Shown here: piece by piece, positions 1 to 7,152 of the stretch | Numbering within the stretch: the first letter of the stretch is position 1 | Layout of the letters: the number at the start of each line of letters is the position of its first letter | IMG/VR virus record: IMGVR_UViG_3300030035_000037 | Location: 1 to 7,152 of that record | Direction: 5' to 3' (one strand) | DNA length: 7,152 bases | Source of the DNA: a virus | Taxonomy: Duplodnaviria; Heunggongvirae; Uroviricota; Caudoviricetes | Position numbers and translations under genes: made by a program | The notes under the pieces: generated by a model | The model's input: only the letters and a program-made list of their open reading frames with translations | What the model was told of the DNA's origin: nothing | Database searches by the model: none

Positions 1-80
1 AACTGCAGGAACCAGTAGCCCGTTCCCACCGCTGACGTGGTGTATGACACACCTGTTGTGATTTTTTCCATCTGGTACAT
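1..80 (-). CDS. S: Class II holin (S21-like pinholin), N-terminal 26 codons only; gene continues beyond the window start
   Basis: Minus-strand translation from ATG (rc of 78-80) gives MYQMEKITTGVSYTTSAVGTGYWFLQ, closely resembling the recalled N-terminus of phage 21 S holin; dual-start Met1/Met4 as in holin/antiholin pairs; GGGAGA Shine-Dalgarno about 8 nt upstream. Not in the ORF track because it is truncated by the window edge. Confidence 0.7.
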   Translation of the reverse strand, partial: MYQMEKITTGVSYTTSAVGTGYWFLQ

Positions 81-155
81 ACCCCGTCTCCCGCAATCCG
101 GAAGCTCACAACAACAAGAGGGGCGTCAGCTCACACCGACAGCCCCTGCGCATGG

Positions 156-425
156 TTACATCATCATTTCGCCGTCAGGCTGAGGCTCACTGCTACCATC
201 AGGCTGAGACCCGACGCCATCTGAAACAGCACTGTCATCCGCAATGCCTTCCGGCTCCGGAACAGTCGGTGCGCCCAGCAGTTCATCCAGAATGGCATCC
301 ACTTCTGCATCAAGACGCGCCTCAAGGTTCTGCCGAAGTTGCTGTTTCAGTGCGCTTCTGACTTCTTCAGAGCGCAGGACTTCCTTCACTGCTTCAGCAG
401 TGACCAGCGATTTTATTTCTGACAT
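156..425 (-). CDS. Hypothetical small protein (89 aa) with a helical N-terminal half and a highly acidic Asp/Glu/Ser/Pro-rich tail
   Basis: ORF-track frame 156..539 begins at a TTG; the first ATG is at 425 (MSEIKSLVTAEAVKEVLRSEE...), with a weak GAGAAA Shine-Dalgarno. Sits between the esterase and the holin. No recognisable motif. Confidence 0.45.
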   Translation of the reverse strand: MSEIKSLVTAEAVKEVLRSEEVRSALKQQLRQNLEARLDAEVDAILDELLGAPTVPEPEGIADDSAVSDGVGSQPDGSSEPQPDGEMMM

Positions 426-462
426 GGTATTTTCTCGTTGAAAGGTGTTGTTAAGAAAGTTG

Positions 463-645
463 CTACGGAATGAGAGGCTCTTCGGGTTTTGTTCCGGCTG
501 ACTGACTGGCACTGATTTTCTCAGCGGCCCTTTTGTCAATCTGTCTGCGCCAGAAATCTCTCACGACTCTGTACCCACCCGAAAGAAGATACAGCACACA
601 GACCGCCGTACAGAAGTACAGCATCACCTGATGAATAAATGTCAT
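463..645 (-). CDS. Hypothetical small single-pass membrane protein (60 aa)
   Basis: ATG at 645; hydrophobic stretch FIHQVMLYFCTAVCVLYLL followed by a basic cluster RVVRDFWRRQIDKR (positive-inside); weak ribosome-binding site. Confidence 0.4.
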   Translation of the reverse strand: MTFIHQVMLYFCTAVCVLYLLSGGYRVVRDFWRRQIDKRAAEKISASQSAGTKPEEPLIP

Positions 646-663
646 AATTTCTTACCGTTATGG

Positions 664-692
664 TTGACAATGAGAATTGTTTTCATTTAAAA
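664..692 (+). promoter_or_regulatory. Candidate sigma70 promoter on the plus strand, antisense to the late operon
   Basis: Perfect -35 TTGACA at 664-669; -10-like TTTAAA/TTAAAA at 686-692 with a 16-17 nt spacer; predicted start near 698-700. Confidence 0.3.
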
Positions 693-742
693 AACCAATG
701 TACGAAAGCATCTTTTCTTTACATTCTCCATTGGGATTACCT

Positions 743-779
743 CCGCCAGCTTCCATTCCTGCCGCTGGCGGCTTTTTTT
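743..779 (+). terminator. Rho-independent terminator on the plus strand
   Basis: 8-bp GC-rich stem CCGCCAGC (743-750) / GCTGGCGG (764-771) with a 13-nt loop, followed by TTTTTTT at 772-778. On the minus strand there is no U-tract after the hairpin. Confidence 0.45.
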
Positions 780-784
780 AGCAA

Positions 785-2650
785 TTATGCGGCTGCTCCA
801 GCTTTGTTTGCTTTAACTTCCACCGTATCAATAAGTACAGGGTAGGTTTCTGCACTACCTGTAATATCCGTAATGACAAACCTGTTGAGTCCATTAGCAG
901 TATTGGCCCATTTCACCAGGTCAAACGCCTGTCCATCCACACCATCAAGCACCGGAGTAACATTAATGCTGTTACTGCCCTTAAATTTAAATGCAAGCGT
1001 ATGCCAGTCATGGTCGAATGCGCCAAACGTGCCAAGTTCTTTTTGTTGATTAACTGTATGATGGTATGCAACATTAATACTGGCTTTATCTGTCTGGACA
1101 AAGAAAGAACTCAGATGGCCTTCACCACCCTCACCCGGCCATTCCGCTATTCGCCAGTACAAACCAAAGGCATACTTGTTTCTGGTTGTCTCAAGATTGA
1201 CGTTTTCGGGGATTTTAAACCGGACAGCAATTTCCCCGCCTTTTTCCAGTAAAAGTTTTGCCTTGTCTGCAGCAATATCACAGTACATTGACCAGGATTT
1301 CGCGCTGTTATTTTTCTCAATTCGCAGAGCTTTATTGCCGCTGTCATCAACCAGTGTGCGTCTGCCATACATACCGTCCCAGCCATAAGGTTTCAGCTGA
1401 TTGTCTGTAGCTTTTTTGGCATCGTAAAAAATTACAGACTCTGAGGTGGTAACCGGCCTGTCTGGAACAACCACCCCGGCAGTACCATTAACAAACGCAG
1501 AAGACTTACCCGCGCAGCTCAGAATCGCCGTTGCCAGACGGTCGGAAATAATCCCACGGCGAGCCCATGAACTGAAATGGCTCGCCCTGTCCTGTGACGT
1601 CCAGGTGGCTGAGCTGTCACGCCATTTCGAACCGTAATAACCGATACCCGGAATGTCCGGGTCTTCTTCCGGTTTGTTCGTCGGCACATTCACCCCGTTC
1701 TCATCGGTCATGAACGGTACGAAATGGATATTCTTTTCCGTTTTATTTTTATAGCTGCCGTACACCGTCTGGTACGTGGATTCGTTCTTCTGCTTCCAGA
1801 AATACGTCGTGTCCCCGCATATCCAGGGAACACCGCCAGCAGAGCCACCGACGCACTGGCCTGCCATATCCGCCAGGTCTGCACGGAATTTATCAACCAG
1901 CGCACCAAACTGTGCGGCATGATTTGCCGGCGTACCGCCAAAATCAAATTCCCCCTGCATCCACACCACGGCAAACAGCACATTTTTCGGGTTCTTCTCC
2001 AGTGCCGCTTTTGTTCGACCGATAAGGTCCTTATACAGCGGCTTGTCCACACCCCAGCGGGTTGAATTCTCCGAGGCACCACTCGCGTCACTGTATGTGC
2101 CATCAGCTCCGGTGGTGAACGCTGAACCACCACGACAGCACGGAACCAGCAGAATGCCCGCATTCGCCGGTATAAACGGCAGCAGTTTTTTGGCGATATG
2201 CAGCCCCTGCCCCACGGTTCCGTACTGCCCCTTTGACAGGTCCGCTTTCGGATGGTTAAGACGGCTCATGTCCTGCACATCATGCAGACAATGGTCCGCC
2301 GGAATGATGTCGTTATATTTGCATGCTGCACCGCCCGGTGTCACCGTACTGCGACGCGCCAGTTGCTTAATACGCGGGTCCGGACGGTCATATGTCCCCG
2401 GCAGCGGAAGGCCTTCACCATACGACATGCCGTTTGACTGCCCTGCCAGAACCACAACAAAGTAATACTCCGGGTCGCTGGTGGCGCTGATTACTGCACC
2501 TTCTGCTGCAATCGCCTGCATCAGAGTATAAGGGGTTATGGCCACCGGACTACCAAACGGCTGCCAGCCCTCTTTCAGTTTATGTGTCAGCTTTTCCGCA
2601 AGATCTGACGGCGACGCCGCCCTGACAACATCATAGTGTTTAAATGCCAT
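785..2650 (-). CDS. nanS-p: Prophage-encoded sialate 9-O-acetylesterase (NanS-p type; N-terminal DUF1737-like region, SGNH/SASA esterase core, C-terminal carbohydrate-binding region)
   Basis: 621-626 aa ORF; GQSNGMSYGEG motif typical of SASA/SGNH esterases; conserved position downstream of the toxin/moron site and upstream of lysis genes in Stx-type phages. ORF-track start is 2665 (MVERTM...); ATG at 2650 (MAFKHYDVV...) is preferred because GGA lies 7 nt upstream. Confidence 0.88.
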   Translation of the reverse strand: MAFKHYDVVRAASPSDLAEKLTHKLKEGWQPFGSPVAITPYTLMQAIAAEGAVISATSDPEYYFVVVLAGQSNGMSYGEGLPLPGTYDRPDPRIKQLARRSTVTPGGAACKYNDIIPADHCLHDVQDMSRLNHPKADLSKGQYGTVGQGLHIAKKLLPFIPANAGILLVPCCRGGSAFTTGADGTYSDASGASENSTRWGVDKPLYKDLIGRTKAALEKNPKNVLFAVVWMQGEFDFGGTPANHAAQFGALVDKFRADLADMAGQCVGGSAGGVPWICGDTTYFWKQKNESTYQTVYGSYKNKTEKNIHFVPFMTDENGVNVPTNKPEEDPDIPGIGYYGSKWRDSSATWTSQDRASHFSSWARRGIISDRLATAILSCAGKSSAFVNGTAGVVVPDRPVTTSESVIFYDAKKATDNQLKPYGWDGMYGRRTLVDDSGNKALRIEKNNSAKSWSMYCDIAADKAKLLLEKGGEIAVRFKIPENVNLETTRNKYAFGLYWRIAEWPGEGGEGHLSSFFVQTDKASINVAYHHTVNQQKELGTFGAFDHDWHTLAFKFKGSNSINVTPVLDGVDGQAFDLVKWANTANGLNRFVITDITGSAETYPVLIDTVEVKANKAGAAA

Positions 2651-2843
2651 GGTTCTTTCCACCATCTGAAAAATGATTCTTTAAAATACCTGACATGTAA
2701 TACAGAAAAAACACAAAACCATACCTTAAATAAAAACCTCATCATCAAGCAGATATGCATGGATAAACTACAAGACGAGATATAAACCACCCTGCATTTA
2801 AATAAACAATAAACAACATCAGAAAAATAATTCTGCTCTATGG

Positions 2844-2870
2844 TTTACATTCAAAAATATCATTTATACT
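2844..2870 (+). promoter_or_regulatory. Candidate sigma70 promoter for the plus-strand cargo ORF
   Basis: -35 TTTACA (2844-2849) and -10 TATACT (2865-2870); spacer is 15 nt, which is short, so this is a weak call. Confidence 0.3.
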
Positions 2871-2910
2871 TTTCAGAACATCACCAGCAATGCATAAACA
2901 AGGAAACCAA

Positions 2911-3246
2911 ATGAAGTGGATTGTGATTGATACAGTTATCCAGCCATCATGCGGAATATCTTTTTCAGTCATATGGAGTAAAATAAAATTAATAATCTGG
3001 TATCAATCGGATGCTTTCTTACCTCCTGAAAGTATATTTACACTGACTCACACAGGCATCATGCTCAATAACAAAGTGCTACCTGTAACCATTTACAACG
3101 TAGTACCATTCAATAAAACATTCTGGAATTTAATCAAAAACAGCCAGGAATGCCCTACAAATACAGATAACGTATTGAATGAATGCTTTAATAACCGTTG
3201 CACTCTGCAAATATGTCCTTATGGGCTAAAACAACAAAGTCCATAA
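2911..3246 (+). CDS. Orphan hypothetical protein (111 aa) in an AT-rich island, opposite strand to the phage late operon; moron/cargo gene candidate
   Basis: ATG at 2911 with AGGA 6 nt upstream (the ORF-track start at 2890 lacks a ribosome-binding site); more than 110 open codons in visibly AT-rich DNA is unlikely by chance; 6 of 13 Ile codons are the rare ATA; four Cys cluster in the C-terminal 30 residues (C-x10-C-x4-C-x4-C). No family recognised. Confidence 0.5.
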
Positions 3247-3282
3247 GGAGTTTACTCACATCTGACAAAATCAATATAAACA

Positions 3283-3302
3283 GCCCCTCCGGAGAGGGGC
3301 TG
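3283..3302. terminator. Perfect 8-bp GC-rich stem-loop bounding the AT-rich island; possible terminator or mRNA 3' stabiliser for the cargo ORF
   Basis: AGCCCCTC cgga GAGGGGCT at 3283-3302, 37 nt after the cargo ORF stop; no clean U-tract on either strand. Confidence 0.35.
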
Positions 3303-3498
3303 GAGAGTGGCGCTATGTGCCATTGCATGGTGCCGGGTGCCTCCCGGTGAATTCAGTACCAGCACCTGAATCCGCGATTATCCCATATACCTACTCGCTG
3401 ATTGCCCCTCCGCACAGGGGGATTCACCATGCCAGTTTCTTTTAACAAACTCCCCGCAAACCAGACAACAGTCAACCGCCTGAATTGTGAGACATTTA

Positions 3499-3524
3499 AA
3501 AAAAAGGCCCGCAAAAGCGAGCCA
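3499..3524 (-). terminator. Rho-independent terminator of the tRNA operon (minus strand)
   Basis: Minus-strand GGCTCGC tttt GCGGGCC (3524..3507) followed by eight U (rc of A-run 3499-3506); begins 14 nt after the 3' end of the last tRNA. Confidence 0.7.
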
Positions 3525-3537
3525 GGGAAAATAAGTG

Positions 3538-3614
3538 TGGCGCGTTGTACTGGATTCGAACCAGTGACCGATTGCTTAGAAGGCAATTGCTCTGTCCGGC
3601 TGAGCTAACAACGC
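3538..3614 (-). tRNA. argO: tRNA-Arg, anticodon TCT (reads AGA)
   Basis: Manual fold of the minus strand: 7-bp perfect acceptor GCGTTGT/ACAACGC, D-arm GCTC..GAGC, anticodon loop CTTCTAA, T-loop TTCGAAT, encoded CCA. Gene symbol assigned only from the conserved ileZ-argN-argO order of Stx-type phages, recalled from memory. Confidence 0.9.
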
Positions 3615-3628
3615 AGGATACAGATAAT

Positions 3629-3704
3629 GAACCGCCTTCGGGGACCCGAACTCCGCGCAACCAGCTTCGAAGGCTGGCGCTCTTTCCTGATGAGCTAATG
3701 GCGG
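3629..3704 (-). tRNA. argN: tRNA-Arg, anticodon TCG; atypical (possibly divergent or degenerate)
   Basis: Manual fold: acceptor CCGCCAT/AAGGCGG (6 of 7 pairs), D-arm GCTC..GAGC, anticodon stem CCAGC/GCTGG with loop CTTCGAA, T-arm CGGAG-TTCGGGT-CCCCG (one A-C mismatch, G at the usually invariant A58), 3' TCA instead of encoded CCA. Exact 3' end is uncertain (3629-3631). Confidence 0.6.
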
Positions 3705-3711
3705 TATGTGA

Positions 3712-3787
3712 TGGTGGCCCTTGCTGGATTTGAACCAGCGACCTGGCGATTATGAGTCGCTCGCTCTCACCACTGAGCTAAAGGGCC
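3712..3787 (-). tRNA. ileZ: tRNA-Ile2 type, anticodon CAT (lysidine-dependent AUA decoder); a tool may call it tRNA-Met
   Basis: Manual fold: perfect acceptor GGCCCTT/AAGGGCC, anticodon loop CTCATAA, T-loop TTCAAAT, encoded CCA; overall very close to the recalled E. coli ileX sequence. Confidence 0.88.
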
Positions 3788-3796
3788 GGGAGCAGA

Positions 3797-3825
3797 ATAA
3801 TAATGGTGCGTAATTAATTCTGCAA
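3797..3825 (-). promoter_or_regulatory. Candidate sigma70 promoter for the tRNA operon
   Basis: Minus strand: -35 TTGCAG (3825..3820), 17-nt spacer, -10 TATTAT (3802..3797); predicted start 2-4 nt upstream of the mature 5' end of the first tRNA. Confidence 0.45.
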
Positions 3826-3836
3826 TCTCATCCGTT

Positions 3837-4886
3837 TCAAACGATTAAATCCTGAACTTCCCTGACTGTCTGCTCAAAACGTCCTGTCTCCAGTTCAACG
3901 CCAATCGCACGACGCCCGAGCGCCAGTGCCGCTTTTACCGTTGAACCCGACCCCATGAAAAAATCCGCAACCAGATCACCAGGACGACTGCTTGCGCTGA
4001 TTATCTGCTGCAGCATTTCTGCCGGTTTTTCGCACGGATGTTTCCCGGGATAGAACTGCACCGGTTTATGTGTCCACACATCCGTGTACGGCACCTGCGC
4101 CGTCACACCAAAATACCGCCGCAGATGTTTATATTCACTCTGCAGCTCCGCATACTGTCGGTTCAGTGAAGTATACGTATCCACCAGCTGGTGGTGGGGC
4201 TTTTCCAGTTCCCCCCGCTGATGCTTCTCTTCTGCCACCCTGGCAAACAGTGCCTGTAATTTCAGATAATCGCTTTCGTTCGGCAACTGCCACTGACTGG
4301 CACTGAACCAGTGCGACACCATGTTTTTCTTTCCTGTGGCATCTGCAATCTGTTTTGCCGTTATCCCCAGGGCCGCGCATGCATCACGAAAGTAAGAAAT
4401 CAGCGGGGCCATCACATGCTGTTTCAGTGCCCTGCCCTTCGCCTCATACCCGGCATCTTTCGGACGATACGGCCCCTGATAATGTTCCGCGAACAGAATG
4501 CGCTCTGTGGCGGGGAAATACGCCCGCAGGCTTTCCTTGTTGCACCCGTTCCAGCGTCCGGAAGGCTTCGCCCAGATAATATGGTTCAGCACACTGAAGC
4601 GTTCACGCATCATGATTTCGATATCAGATGCCAGGCGATGACCACAGAACAGGTAAAGACTTCCGGCAGGTTTCAGCACCCGCCAGAACTGCGCCAGACA
4701 CTGGTCCAGCCACTTCAGGTAATCATCGTCGCCCTTCCACTGGTTATCCCAGCCCTCAGGCTTCACTTTAAAGTACGGCGGGTCCGTGACTATCAGGTCA
4801 ACAGAATTTTCGGGTAACGACCGGATAAATTCCAGGCAGTCGGCGTTGATTAACTCACAACTGGATATTTTTACAGTATTAAGCAT
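3837..4886 (-). CDS. DNA methyltransferase, beta-class (motif IV before motif I), predicted N6-adenine specific; orphan (no cognate nuclease in window)
   Basis: 349 aa; SVDLIVTDPPY near the N-terminus (DPPY favours N6-adenine over N4-cytosine SPPY); AdoMet motif DFFMGSGST near the C-terminus; architecture of the N6_N4_Mtase family. Weak Shine-Dalgarno; a GATC overlaps the start region at 4887-4890. Confidence 0.9.
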   Translation of the reverse strand: MLNTVKISSCELINADCLEFIRSLPENSVDLIVTDPPYFKVKPEGWDNQWKGDDDYLKWLDQCLAQFWRVLKPAGSLYLFCGHRLASDIEIMMRERFSVLNHIIWAKPSGRWNGCNKESLRAYFPATERILFAEHYQGPYRPKDAGYEAKGRALKQHVMAPLISYFRDACAALGITAKQIADATGKKNMVSHWFSASQWQLPNESDYLKLQALFARVAEEKHQRGELEKPHHQLVDTYTSLNRQYAELQSEYKHLRRYFGVTAQVPYTDVWTHKPVQFYPGKHPCEKPAEMLQQIISASSRPGDLVADFFMGSGSTVKAALALGRRAIGVELETGRFEQTVREVQDLIV

Positions 4887-4980
4887 GGATCATTAAGCCT
4901 GTCTCTGATAGGCTCATTCTGCTTTTGCGCAAAGCAGTGGGCCTGAGGTTTGCTTGTGAACCCAACGCATGAGCAGATGG

Positions 4981-5007
4981 CTGGTGGGTGCCCCTAACAC
5001 CCACCAG
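4981..5007 (-). other. Perfect 10-bp GC-rich inverted repeat with 7-nt loop in the methyltransferase 5' leader
   Basis: CTGGTGGGTG ccccTaa CACCCACCAG at 4981-5007; no U-tract on either strand, so not a canonical intrinsic terminator. Confidence 0.5.
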
Positions 5008-5026
5008 CCGCCCATTTACCACAAAT
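5008..5026 (-). repeat. Second, truncated copy of the pR' -10 core (ATTTGTGGTAAAT followed directly by GGGCGG)
   Basis: Minus strand 5026..5008 ATTTGTGGTAAATGGGCGG versus pR' (5441..5411) ATCTGTGGTAAAT-TTGCTCTAACGAT-GGGCG: 12 of 13 identical then GGGCG, with the 13-nt initial transcribed segment absent. Confidence 0.55.
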
Positions 5027-5050
5027 AAAAAAGCCTTCACTGCGGAAGGC
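5021..5050 (-). terminator. Rho-independent terminator after the small winged-helix-like ORF
   Basis: Minus strand GCCTTC cgcagt GAAGGC (5050..5033) followed by TTTTTTATTTGT (5032..5021); the ORF stop codon (5037-5039) lies inside the stem. Confidence 0.6.
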
Positions 5051-5234
5051 GTCTGTAACAACCGAACTGATAGTCTGCCAGACCCGCCATAACCAGCTGG
5101 GTCAGTATTAACTGGCAGCGTTCGCGTGAAAGGTAAGTATTCTGTGCAATCTCCCCGACTGTCGCCGGTTCGGTAACGCTTAATTCATTAAACACTACTC
5201 TGGCGGTTTCTGTCATATCCTGCTGTTTTAGCAT
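5037..5234 (-). CDS. Small hypothetical protein (65 aa) with a predicted winged-helix/HTH-like segment; possible DNA-binding regulator
   Basis: ATG at 5234 preceded by AAGGGA; ORF-track version 5037..5321 starts at a GTG and is less likely. Segment TVGEIAQNTYLSRERCQLILTQLVMAGLA has the pattern of a winged-helix recognition region (PapI/FaeA- or MarR-like); weak, pattern-only assignment. Confidence 0.45.
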   Translation of the reverse strand: MLKQQDMTETARVVFNELSVTEPATVGEIAQNTYLSRERCQLILTQLVMAGLADYQFGCYRRLPQ

Positions 5235-5354
5235 GTCTTTTTCCCTTTTCCGGTTAACGTGACACACCAATAACTCTTGTCGAAAAAGCCAGCAAGCTGA
5301 AAGACAGGTATTCACCGCCACCAGCGCGTTTACTGTACTGACGCGATTTCAGTC

Positions 5355-5378
5355 ATAAAAAACCCGCCAGGCGGCGGG
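5355..5378 (-). terminator. tR'-like Rho-independent terminator downstream of pR'
   Basis: Minus strand CCCGCC gcct GGCGGG (5378..5363) followed by TTTTTTAT (5362..5355). Confidence 0.7.
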
Positions 5379-5421
5379 GTGTAAAAAATCTTCTAACGTC
5401 AGGCATAAAACGCCCATCGTT
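5355..5421 (-). ncRNA. Predicted short pR' leader transcript (about 65 nt), analogous to lambda 6S RNA / the StxS sRNA of Stx phages
   Basis: Predicted start at A 5421 (7 nt after the -10) and tR' U-tract ending near 5355; contains an A/U-rich single-stranded stretch before the terminator hairpin. Existence inferred from promoter plus terminator only. Confidence 0.5.
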
Positions 5422-5455
5422 AGAGCAAATTTACCACAGATTCGGGAAAAATCAA
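5416..5455 (-). promoter_or_regulatory. Late promoter pR' (lambda-like) with extended -10 and promoter-proximal pause element; presumed Q engagement site
   Basis: Minus strand -35 TTGATT (5455..5450), 16-nt spacer, TGg-TAAATT extended -10 (5433..5428), then TGCTCT and AACGATGGG at +1 onward; the -10 plus AACGAT arrangement matches lambda pR' as recalled from memory. Lies 6-45 nt downstream of the Q stop codon. Confidence 0.65.
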
Positions 5456-5460
5456 CAACA

Positions 5461-6282
5461 CTATCGCGTTACCCTCTTTAACTGCCGCTCCGCCCATGCC
5501 TCTTCAATGTCAAACCGAACCACCAACGTATCGTAAAAGCGTTTCACTGATTTTTTCCACGTATCAAGCGTGATAGCACTCGTCACTTTGCATATGGCAT
5601 TAAATGCCTCCGTTGATGGTAGTCTTTCACAGCCACGACCACCACAACGCTGGCAGTCTCTGATAACAGGCATACCACGTTTTACCGACTCTTCACGATG
5701 AATGGCGACACCACGCCCACGGCAATCCTTACAGGCGGTGGAAACCTCACCCTTTCCGCCACACTCCGGACAGGCAACTTTTACCACCTCCCTGACTTTT
5801 TTCCATTCTTCCCAGTAAGACGGATACACACCTTTCGTACACTTTGCCCATACCGGCGGCTTACCATCCGGATACTGGACCTTGTTTGTAAAAACTACGC
5901 TTTCAATAAATTTTTCCCCATAGCAACAAGGGCACTGCTTTTTACTCGCTGCGCTGCGGGCATAATCCTCAAAAGCGTACGAAGCCATAATGCGCATCAC
6001 TACCGGTTTTATTTCTGCCGGGAGTTTTCTTAACGCCGCCACGCGATCACACCGACTGAGTGCATATTCTGTCAGCAATTCTGTTGCCCGCTCTCTGTCA
6101 TTCATACTAATGCCCATTTTCCCAAGGAACGCAGAAAACCCCATCTCAGCCCGATTCTGTGTCATGCCCTGCGCGGCCATCACATCAGTGATACTCAGCG
6201 CATCTTTCGACGTTGAGGCCGATGCATCAGTCAGGCCGGGGGATTTTGGGGAGTAGTATTTCGGTAAATCTTCCAGTTTCAT
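5461..6282 (-). CDS. Q: Late-gene antitermination protein Q, lambda-Q family, with an enlarged Cys-rich zinc-binding region
   Basis: 273 aa; blocks matching recalled lambda Q: YSPKSP, DVMAAQGM, ASYAFEDYARSAA, C-terminal LKRVTR; multiple CxxC pairs; located immediately upstream of the lambda-like pR'; start overlaps the rusA stop (ATGA). Confidence 0.88.
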   Translation of the reverse strand: MKLEDLPKYYSPKSPGLTDASASTSKDALSITDVMAAQGMTQNRAEMGFSAFLGKMGISMNDRERATELLTEYALSRCDRVAALRKLPAEIKPVVMRIMASYAFEDYARSAASKKQCPCCYGEKFIESVVFTNKVQYPDGKPPVWAKCTKGVYPSYWEEWKKVREVVKVACPECGGKGEVSTACKDCRGRGVAIHREESVKRGMPVIRDCQRCGGRGCERLPSTEAFNAICKVTSAITLDTWKKSVKRFYDTLVVRFDIEEAWAERQLKRVTR

Positions 6283-6659
6283 TTTTTGACCTGCCCTTCA
6301 AGCATTATGGGGTAAATCTTCACCCCCAGACGTCCACCAGATACTGGCTGAGCACGAACGATATTGATTTCATCAAACTGCTCATCGTCCATTAGCAACC
6401 CCGCATGCGTCAGCGCATCCAGCGGCGCTTTCAGAATATTGTCCAGGTCACGGCGGCGCTTATCCGGTGGTTCTGCAATAATTTTTATTGCCAACCTTCC
6501 GGACAGGCTTAATTTCAGCCGCTGCTGGCGAACAATAAGCGCCACTGCCCGGCGATAACGCTCCCCGGCTTTTGATACAAAATATGTGCTGCCACGACGA
6601 CGCCAGTAAGTGTTCACCGTTGGCGGGTAAGGCAAAACAAATTCTATGCGTTCAGTCAT
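6279..6659 (-). CDS. rusA: Crossover junction endodeoxyribonuclease RusA (Holliday junction resolvase)
   Basis: 126 aa; PYPPTVNTYWRRRG near the N-terminus and RRRDLDNILKAPLDALTHAGLLMDD acidic catalytic region match the RusA family pattern; canonical position just upstream of Q. Confidence 0.88.
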   Translation of the reverse strand: MTERIEFVLPYPPTVNTYWRRRGSTYFVSKAGERYRRAVALIVRQQRLKLSLSGRLAIKIIAEPPDKRRRDLDNILKAPLDALTHAGLLMDDEQFDEINIVRAQPVSGGRLGVKIYPIMLEGQVKK

Positions 6660-7152
6660 TTATGCTTTCCACTTCAAAACACCCGAATTTCTCGCGTGCA
6701 TTAAAAAACGAATCAGCAACAACAGCTGGCTGCCGTGTTTTTCTTCAAAATCTTTTACCCCGGCGTGTAGTTCGCTATGGCATTTACGGCACAGCGGAAT
6801 AACAAACAAATCATCAGCCTTTGTTCCCATCCCTCCCAGTCCATGACCAATGATGTGATGCGGATCATCTGCCTGATTGCCACACGTCATGCATTTCTGC
6901 GTTTTTACCCAACGCGTGTATACAGGCATCTCTTCCCGTTGTGATTTCTGGCGCTGGAGATACTGAGCCGGTGACTCCGGATCAACGGCAATGCTGACCA
7001 CCGTCTTTTCCTGTGGCGGGTTTTGCTGGTGGGCGTGAGGCAGCGGCGCAAGATTTTTTGTGCGCTGCTTCAGTATGCTGGTGGCGGTCTGCTCTCCCGG
7101 TACGATGTCGCTTTCACGGTACATTGAGCGGATTTTTTCCGCACGCAACCCC
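6660..7152 (-). CDS. Cys/His-rich HNH-motif protein (DUF968/YdfU-like), C-terminal part; likely continues beyond the window end
   Basis: Frame is open to the right window edge; C-terminal motif CMTCGNQADDPHHIIGHG...IPLCRKCHSELH (CxxC ... HH ... CxxCH) resembles an HNH zinc-binding nuclease fold; stop TAA abuts the rusA ATG. Family name is from memory and unverified. Confidence 0.55.
   Translation of the reverse strand, partial: GLRAEKIRSMYRESDIVPGEQTATSILKQRTKNLAPLPHAHQQNPPQEKTVVSIAVDPESPAQYLQRQKSQREEMPVYTRWVKTQKCMTCGNQADDPHHIIGHGLGGMGTKADDLFVIPLCRKCHSELHAGVKDFEEKHGSQLLLLIRFLMHARNSGVLKWKA

Follow-up and report, generated by a model that had tools for sequence, protein, structure and literature searches.

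The window studied here, a stretch of 7,152 nucleotides from a virus of the Caudoviricetes (positions 1 to 7,152 of IMG/VR record IMGVR_UViG_3300030035_000037), belongs to a lambdoid, Stx-phage-like prophage, of which it spans the late-regulatory and moron region; all neighbouring genes are on the minus strand. Between the stop codon of an esterase gene (785-787) and the start codon of a DUF1378 gene (643-645) lies a spacer of 139 nt, and an earlier note on this DNA had proposed that its plus strand encodes an antisense RNA of about 80 nt. Is this spacer the site of a small RNA (sRNA) gene and, if so, of which kind? Judging from comparison with related phages and with known sRNAs, we consider it likely that window positions 664-779 (+) form an autonomous sRNA gene, namely a prophage-borne paralogue of Esr41, an Hfq-dependent sRNA, from which it has diverged.

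A candidate promoter and terminator facing the late operon

Reading the plus strand directly, we found a -35 hexamer TTGACA (664-669; 6/6 match) that lies 19 nt upstream of the DUF1378 start codon, on the other strand. It is followed by an 18-nt spacer, ATGAGAATTGTTTTCATT (670-687), and by a -10 hexamer TAAAAA (688-693), which agrees with TATAAT at 4/6 positions, having the -11 A and lacking the -7 T. This confirms the perfect -35 and the modest -10 described in the earlier note. The hexamers together with their distance, which falls within 16-18 nt, make 664-693 a candidate sigma-70 promoter. The TTGACA motif itself occurs four times in the window against five expected, i.e. without excess over chance; it is the conservation across 27 unique variants (see below) that lifts the cassette above chance.

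Downstream, the GC-rich hairpin and seven-T run reported at 743-779 (+) are present as well. The 8-bp stem is formed by CCGCCAGC (743-750) and GCTGGCGG (764-771), with seven of the eight pairs being G-C, and is completed by a 13-nt loop, a single C (C772) and the T7 run (773-779). A GC-rich hairpin with a U-run on the transcribed strand is what characterizes an intrinsic terminator, and a terminator scan listed the inner part of the 743-771 hairpin. The hairpin begins about 50 nt past the -10, and the T-run ends 5 nt before the esterase stop codon. From the sigma-70 promoter, transcription would start at about 698-700, a position chosen because the Esr41 RNA begins 6 nt after its own -10, and the hairpin and U7 would end it at about 777-780. 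The predicted sRNA would thus be about 82 nt long (698-779, +), with its 3' end in the U-run, and the cassette runs opposite to all surrounding genes, as the note had stated.

In a fold of 83 nt of the plus strand, a 5' stem-loop, a single-stranded stretch and the terminator follow one another (-19.6 kcal/mol, z = -2.7). The minus strand reaches -23.3 kcal/mol with z = -2.8. With both strands folding about equally well, the single sequence is weak evidence, and the case for an sRNA gene rests on comparison.

The cassette is related to Esr41

Esr41 (EcOnc14; Rfam RF02676) is a validated 74-nt Hfq-dependent sRNA encoded on the island SpLE1/OI-43 of enterohaemorrhagic Escherichia coli (EHEC) O157. 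A permissive Rfam scan aligned positions 1-74 of the 74-position RF02676 model to window 705-779 with 20.7 bits, and the copy of the window subtype in VT2-Sakai/Sp5 (about 1,270,632-1,270,715, minus strand, NC_002695.1) was matched over the full length with 30.9 bits. The relationship was also recovered in the reverse test, for which profiles were built from prophage variants only, with no Esr41 sequence included. An nhmmer profile of 27 variants matched the Esr41 locus in SpLE1 from the TTGACA to the U-run (E 2e-8; 3.8e-5 when only the RNA part was used), and a covariance model of 14 variants, R1, matched Esr41 over its full length (31.6 bits, E 6.9e-7). Pairwise, the window and Esr41 are 66% identical over 121 columns (z = 8.5; 0/1000 shuffles reach the score), rising to 73% over the 3' 60 nt. 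Homology to Esr41 over the whole RNA is therefore statistically supported.

Both cassettes are homologous from promoter to terminator. They share the TTGACA, an 18-nt spacer and a TA-rich -10 (TATATA in Esr41), the core ACAUU(UU)CUCCAU.GGG.AUU.CCUCCGCC, and the same stem core and U-run. In the alignment, the core reads ACAUU--CUCCAUUGGG-AUUACCUCCGCCAGC ... GCUGGCG in the window and ACAUUUUCUCCAUGGGGUAUUCCCUCCGCCGGC ... GCUGGCG in Esr41. The differences lie in the 5' stem-loop and the terminator loop, which are unlike each other, in the length of the window RNA, which is about 8 nt greater, and in its weaker -10. Moreover, Esr41 stands alone beside iha in its island, whereas the window copy is antisense in a prophage late operon, and expression is proven for Esr41 and predicted for the window subtype. 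BLAST with Esr41 against E. coli genomes found 714 places in 695 genomes, all at least 95% identical, and recovered none of the window subtype; because such a search finds near-identical copies only, Esr41 has been described as island-specific. No paper turned up when the literature was searched for the hairpin, written as DNA or RNA and in either orientation. Taken together, the comparison supports the view that the window cassette is a diverged, previously unlabelled, prophage-borne relative of Esr41.

Conservation and spread of the subtype

Our cassette set comprised 80 IMG/VR loci with DUF1378, the Sp5 locus and the window, which together gave 32 unique versions; 27 of these, deriving from 70 related loci, were aligned. 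Five of the six -35 positions are invariant in these 27 unique variants and the sixth is nearly so, while T688, A689 and A691 of the -10 are invariant. The most conserved block is TTCTCCAT (724-731, +), a putative seed with 7/8 positions invariant, and the stem core and T-run are likewise invariant or nearly so. More variation is seen in the spacer, the 5' body and the terminator loop, and this pattern of conservation is what a transcription unit would show. In the most diverged variants (L018, L029 and L053) the loop is wholly replaced and the stem and T-run are kept. At the terminator, GCC[A/G]G with C[T]GGC forms an invariant stem core, and all variants keep the stem and a T-run of at least five. 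Around it, stem pairs covary, with pair 8 being C-G, T.G or T-A and pair 9 being G-C or A-T; pair 2 is C-G here and A-T in the Pas cassettes described below. RNAalifold, applied to 14 diverse variants, retained the terminator helix alone and gave no covariation within its 6 core pairs.

The subtype is widespread: among 5,426 complete E. coli genomes, 979 carry it, at 2,225 places altogether. It is also found in 294 phage records, mostly of Stx1- and Stx2-converting phages including VT2-Sakai/Sp5. The similarity of the window to Stx phages ends exactly at the end of the T-run (window 783), so the module with which the cassette travels is that of DUF1378 and lysis, not the esterase C-terminus. 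Scanning species-representative genomes with the DUF1378 protein brought up no confirmed relatives, and the distribution of the cassette given here is that within Escherichia and Shigella phage material.

Verified sRNAs occupy the same position

The earlier note had pointed to sRNAs in related phages, and EcOnc33, PasA and PasC indeed occupy the same site in the same orientation. Eleven DUF1378 loci (L043-L045, L050, L054, L056, L058-L061 and L070) carry a different cassette at this place, consisting of TTGACA and TAAAAA with 17 or 18 nt between them, an unrelated body, a CCGCC/GGCGG stem and a T-run before the esterase stop. The complement of the EcOnc33 northern probe falls in this alternative cassette in Sakai Sp6, on the antisense strand, with the esterase gene ECs_1527 on one side and the DUF1378 gene ECs_1528 on the other; the EcOnc33 locus also corresponds to L087 2686-2834 (-). 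EcOnc33 is an Hfq-bound RNA of about 71 nt on northern blot and was present in 5/5 datasets of Hfq crosslinking and analysis of cDNA (Hfq-CRAC) (Tree et al. 2014). Its promoter in Sp6 has the same TTGACA, the same 18-nt spacer and the same TAAAAA as the window. As EcOnc33 is expressed, a promoter with the hexamers and spacing of the window is active in vivo at the same position. The two cassettes thus resemble each other in their antisense placement in the esterase-DUF1378 spacer, in TTGACA-N18-TAAAAA, in the CCGCC/GGCGG base of the stem and in a U-run just before the esterase stop. They differ in the RNA body, which is unrelated (model R1 finds the terminator only, E 0.61), and the transcribed part of EcOnc33 lacks UUCUCCAU, the putative seed as it stands in the window RNA.

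PasA and PasC of enteropathogenic E. coli (EPEC) E2348/69 are northern-verified, Hfq-dependent and major hubs in RIL-seq, in which interacting RNAs are identified by ligation and sequencing (PMC8550237). Table S6 of PMC8550237 gives their orientation as '> < >' for PasA and '(> <) >' for PasC, and their positions on NC_011601.1 are antisense between the esterase and lysis genes, the same arrangement as in the window. A 2026 preprint likewise describes the arrangement esterase-PasA-holin-lysozyme. In Sakai, the Hfq-CRAC peaks EcOnc51 (the PasA counterpart) and EcOnc52 (the PasC counterpart) lie antisense just after the esterase gene. Both Pas RNAs share with the window RNA a TTGACA -35, a length of about 80 nt, a stem core of GCCAGC with GCTGGC and a U7, and the terminator of PasC abuts the esterase stop codon as in the window. 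The similarity to the window is however confined to the terminator (GCCAGCGTCC...CGCTGGC). Furthermore, the seed proposed for PasA, GCCAGCACCU, lies in the terminator arm and not in UUCUCCAU, and the Pas cassettes abut the holin gene, not DUF1378. The lead to PasA and PasC had come from position alone, and membership of the window RNA was rejected on nhmmer E values of 0.03-0.06 at best, covariance E values of at least 0.25 and 5' parts with z ~0 against shuffles.

Two further features of the Pas-type loci were observed. A terminator-like hairpin on the sense strand, GCCGTCAGTGGGTGACACTGGCGGC followed by T6, stands between the PasA/PasC promoter and the holin gene (L002 2728-2768, +; L003 2535-2576, +; L005 3783-3823, -), and the window has no counterpart of it. 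In E2348/69 PP2 and Sakai Sp12, two tandem antisense cassettes follow the esterase gene, namely PasA/EcOnc51 and a shorter PasC-like cassette abutting the stop codon (L002 2366-2470, -; L004 3011-3098, -; L005 4085-4184, +), and this second terminator accounts for the 236-nt 'minor' PasA species. In Sakai Sp4, the PasC-like cassette (EcOnc52) was seen alone, beside an IS629 insertion.

At least four RNA bodies (Esr41-like, EcOnc33, PasA and PasC) share slot, orientation and a TTGACA promoter, and the -35 of the window aligns with the TTGACA of the Esr41, EcOnc33, PasA and PasC promoters. The Esr41-like cassette is the fourth sequence class at this conserved phage sRNA position. Together with the promoter-to-terminator homology to Esr41, the shared slot of verified sRNAs argues for the antisense RNA gene of about 80 nt that the note had foreseen, and transcription of the window copy is predicted on these grounds.

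Other phage RNAs resemble the window RNA in more general ways. Lambda OOP is a 77-nt RNA that has its own constitutive promoter and terminator, runs against the phage operon and overlaps the 3' end of the upstream gene. It is likewise a short self-contained RNA transcribed against a phage operon, but it has no sequence relation to the window RNA, lies in the cII-O region and not in the late operon, and acts in cis via RNase III. AsxR and AgvB (Rfam RF02703 and RF02702) are prophage sRNAs, convergent, in the late-region moron zone of Stx phages. They differ in lying on the other side of the esterase, between moron and esterase (AsxR at L001 5474-5526), and in being sponges of core sRNAs of 51-60 nt; an Rfam scan gave no match to either in the window. 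HnrS (EcOnc10, 11 and 12), EvrS/Esr023 and Esr055 lie at other loci and were rejected as the identity of the cassette.

A putative seed and mode of action

The block TTCTCCAT is identical to the matching part of Esr41, AUUUUCUCCAUGG, and the Esr41-type seed segment (A)UUUUCUCCAU is found in the window with two fewer U than in Esr41. In the accessible part of the published data from RNase E-based crosslinking, ligation and sequencing of hybrids (RNase E-CLASH), Esr41 AUUUUCUCCA... is joined to a target fragment containing UUUGGAGAAAAGG, and by this single hybrid the Esr41 seed falls on the block that does not vary among the prophage copies. In the window RNA, UUCUCCAU (724-731) is partly paired in the minimum free energy fold and unpaired in the centroid.

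Esr41 pairs directly with chuA, cirA and bfr and so represses them, which compensatory mutations confirmed; it also makes cells resistant to colicins Ia and Ib and influences fitness when iron is limiting (PMC5286369). It also represses the enterocyte effacement locus (LEE) and raises fliC expression by an unknown route. As we picture it, the window RNA would begin with a 5' stem-loop that varies among copies, continue with the conserved ACAUUCUCCAUUGGGAUUACCUCC in single-stranded form and end in the terminator hairpin and its U-tail. Such a hairpin and tail are what Hfq usually binds, and Hfq would be expected to bind here as well. UUCUCCAU may pair with GGAGA-containing sites at or near the ribosome-binding sites of trans-encoded mRNAs and thereby repress them, as Esr41 does with chuA, cirA and bfr; the same action would be expected of both RNAs, as a seed with UUCUCCA pairs GGAGAA sites. 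Being transcribed against the late operon, the RNA would also be a perfect complement of the late mRNA in the esterase-DUF1378 spacer, and an additional action in cis is possible.

Targets within the window were sought with RNAduplex, comparing 721-752 with 9 translation start regions. One nominal match lies upstream of 5321 (0.007 of shuffles); it fails correction for nine tests, its start codon is doubtful, and it was rejected.

Expression data and a Fur-box-like sequence

Several observations weigh against an active, Esr41-type sRNA gene. The window scores 20.7 bits against an RF02676 gathering score of 102 bits, compared with 108.6 bits for true Esr41. The 5' stem-loop is not conserved among the variants; the one predicted for the window belongs to a single lineage, and a conserved 5' structure was rejected. 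A strict promoter scan did not call the sRNA promoter, because it demands a T at hexamer position 6, and the TAAAAA is weaker than the TATATA of Esr41. The Sakai Hfq-CRAC table has no EcOnc peak at the Sp5 copy, though Esr41, EcOnc33, EcOnc51 and EcOnc52 are listed, and the accessible part of the RNase E-CLASH data contains no fragment with coordinates 12706xx or 12707xx. Similarly, an RNA-seq list for strain EDL933 is empty at the equivalent spacers, from z1466 or z3342 to the gene that follows, and the available portions of Tree 2014 Table S2, the Waters 2017 CLASH tables, Han 2017 Table S3 and Sy 2020 show no transcript at the subtype.

The promoter region offers a lead on conditional expression. 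A tentative Fur-box-like sequence, GACAATGAGAATTGTTTTC (666-684, +), overlaps the -35 and the spacer and matches GATAATGATAATCATTATC at 14/19 positions. It is the sole site in the window with at least 14 matches (expected, 0.11). The match weakens in most variants, which score 12-13/19, and is lost in the distant ones, which like the Pas promoters score 9-11/19. The Rfam PrrF model also matches weakly here, its 5' end aligning from the -35 TTGACA through the spacer. Such a site could explain the non-detection through conditional expression, a thought we treat as a lead only; the abundance of RyhB in the CRAC cultures speaks against Fur repression alone as the explanation.

Alternative explanations

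That the subtype is missing from the Hfq-CRAC list of Sakai, from the CLASH coordinates and from the list for EDL933, together with the weak -10, would fit a silent or decaying relic that is homologous to Esr41 and no longer meaningfully expressed, with the terminator alone still mattering. We regard a relic as quite unlikely, since -35, -10 core, seed block, stem and U-run have all stayed invariant in the 27 unique variants despite replaced loops and 5' bodies, changes in the stem are compensated, and EcOnc33, whose promoter has these hexamers at this spacing, is abundant. The hairpin might instead serve the minus strand, as a 3' stabiliser of the processed esterase mRNA or as an RNase site, with the TTGACA being coincidental; the note had named protection of the esterase mRNA 3' end as its own alternative. 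On the mRNA strand the hairpin lies 13 nt past the esterase stop codon and folds at least as well as on the plus strand. However, the T-run exists on the plus strand only, the minus strand past the hairpin reading AGGTAATCC. Moreover, wobbles within the helix, found in 5 unique variants at 3 positions, are all G.U on the plus strand and hence A.C mismatches on the mRNA strand, and no in-helix A.C on the plus strand occurs among the variants. These two observations make the hairpin a plus-strand terminator and not a feature of the esterase mRNA. As the TTGACA is also invariant and aligned with the Esr41 promoter, and the homologue Esr41 is experimentally an RNA of the corresponding strand, a minus-strand role appears very improbable. 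That the locus encodes a small protein is scarcely credible. A 61-aa open reading frame (ORF) at 660-845 (+) is indeed among the listed reading frames. It spans promoter and terminator and then runs antisense into the esterase gene, has no Pfam match, has ATT or ACG in place of its start codon in 11/70 copies and varies from 3 to 99 codons, and was rejected as a gene, in line with the doubt already expressed in the note. A minus-strand mini-ORF (731 to 687, MENVKKRCFRTLVF) has 14 codons and is preceded by a good Shine-Dalgarno sequence, GGAGG at 744 to 740, with 8 nt between it and ATGGAGAA. In its favour, ATGGAGAA with an upstream GGAGG or GGTGG is conserved, which follows from its being the complement of the conserved TTCTCCAT...CCTCC. 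Against it, the same bases are conserved in Esr41, in an unrelated context. The length of the mini-ORF is not conserved (4 to about 24 codons in other variants), nor is its product, which has 14 aa in the window and reads MEKK in Sp5, MEEVGH in L053 and MENDM in L018; on the variant sequences the mini-ORF was rejected as a coding sequence.

A further alternative concerns the role of the RNA and not its existence. Its main role might be in cis, either as an OOP-like antisense RNA or as a convergent transcription unit between the moron region (tRNAs, a PasD/STnc100-like RNA and the esterase) and the lysis block. In the lysogen, its pairing or collision with leaky rightward transcripts would keep DUF1378, DUF826 and holin silent without Q. 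The RNA is fully complementary to the late mRNA at 698-779, directly upstream of the lysis block, and four unrelated or barely related RNA bodies in one slot and one orientation suggest that position and orientation are under selection. The sense-strand terminator just before the holin gene at Pas-type loci fits a need for insulation, and the RIL-seq partners of PasA include the 3' end of the neighbouring esterase mRNA. On the other hand, Esr41 acts in trans from an island without such a context, and the predicted RNA stays clear of the DUF1378 ribosome-binding site, from which its 5' end is about 50 nt distant. Furthermore, the strongest conservation lies in an 8-nt seed-like block and not in the whole antisense stretch; as a cis antisense RNA is always complementary and needs no conserved sequence, the conserved seed counts against a pure cis role. 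We hold a main role in cis to be possible, though on the unlikely side, and a trans role would be compatible with it.

Implications of an Esr41 paralogue on prophages

If the proposed Esr41 paralogue is active, Esr41-type control would also reside on lambdoid prophages, the Stx-converting ones among them, frequently with more than one copy to a genome. The subtype is found at 2,225 places versus 714 for Esr41, and its copies adjoin toxin, esterase and lysis genes. Phenotypes of Esr41 deletions would then be read differently, because paralogues sharing the seed may mask them.

A more far-reaching joint reading, speculative and in our view unlikely as a whole, is that the esterase/lysis junction is an exchangeable sRNA slot in which a fixed promoter/terminator frame faces the late operon and seeds are swapped. 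Its Esr41-like occupant would be Fur-repressed via 666-684, would retune iron uptake and colicin sensitivity through chuA, cirA and bfr, and would act as a cis safety catch on the lysis genes. Esr41 has been described as a pathotype-specific sRNA of one island whose control extends to the receptors for haem and siderophores, to bacterioferritin and colicin sensitivity, and to LEE and motility. Were the slot and iron-responsive reading true, Esr41-type regulation would be a dosage-variable, phage-spread function and not a single-copy EHEC-specific trait.

Genomic surroundings

All genes named in this section lie on the minus strand unless stated otherwise. The DUF1378 gene (463-645; Pfam PF07125, E 6e-38), the divergent neighbour of the cassette, is the first of a DUF1378-DUF826-holin block, in which the DUF826 gene (156-425) was assigned by Pfam and the start of the holin gene, near base 70, was read from the sequence. 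The convergent neighbour (785-2665) encodes a NanS-p-type sialate O-acetylesterase with Pfam DUF1737, SASA and DUF6645 domains, and its homologues are annotated as SASA family carbohydrate esterase. Further upstream, Pfam identified a DNA methylase (3837-4886) and a Q-type antiterminator (5461-6282), while RefSeq annotation of homologous stretches named a RusA gene (6279-6659) and a DUF968/NinG-like gene (6660-7148). The antiterminator is long (273 aa), with CxxCxGxG zinc-finger repeats that precede and overlap the Antiterm domain and match the DnaJ central domain weakly (26 bits, under the cutoff).

Three tRNAs are found at 3538-3787. Just downstream of them and upstream of the esterase gene, the Rfam STnc100 model matches 3272-3461 over its full length with 132 bits, indicating a STnc100/PasD-like sRNA; STnc100 has recently been tied to PasD, and hence to EcOnc13. 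With this match, there would be sRNA genes on both flanks of the esterase gene.

The window contains no stx genes. Its AT-rich part at 2666-3271 holds an ORF of 118 aa (2890-3246, +), on the opposite strand to all other genes, which matches phrog_4407, of unknown function there (E 4e-73), and has no Pfam match. The only two promoter-scan sites of the window (2803-2831, + and 2962-2989, +) also fall within this part. The stretch around this ORF resembles a moron in reverse orientation, sited where stx and AsxR/AgvB-type RNAs are found in Stx phages.

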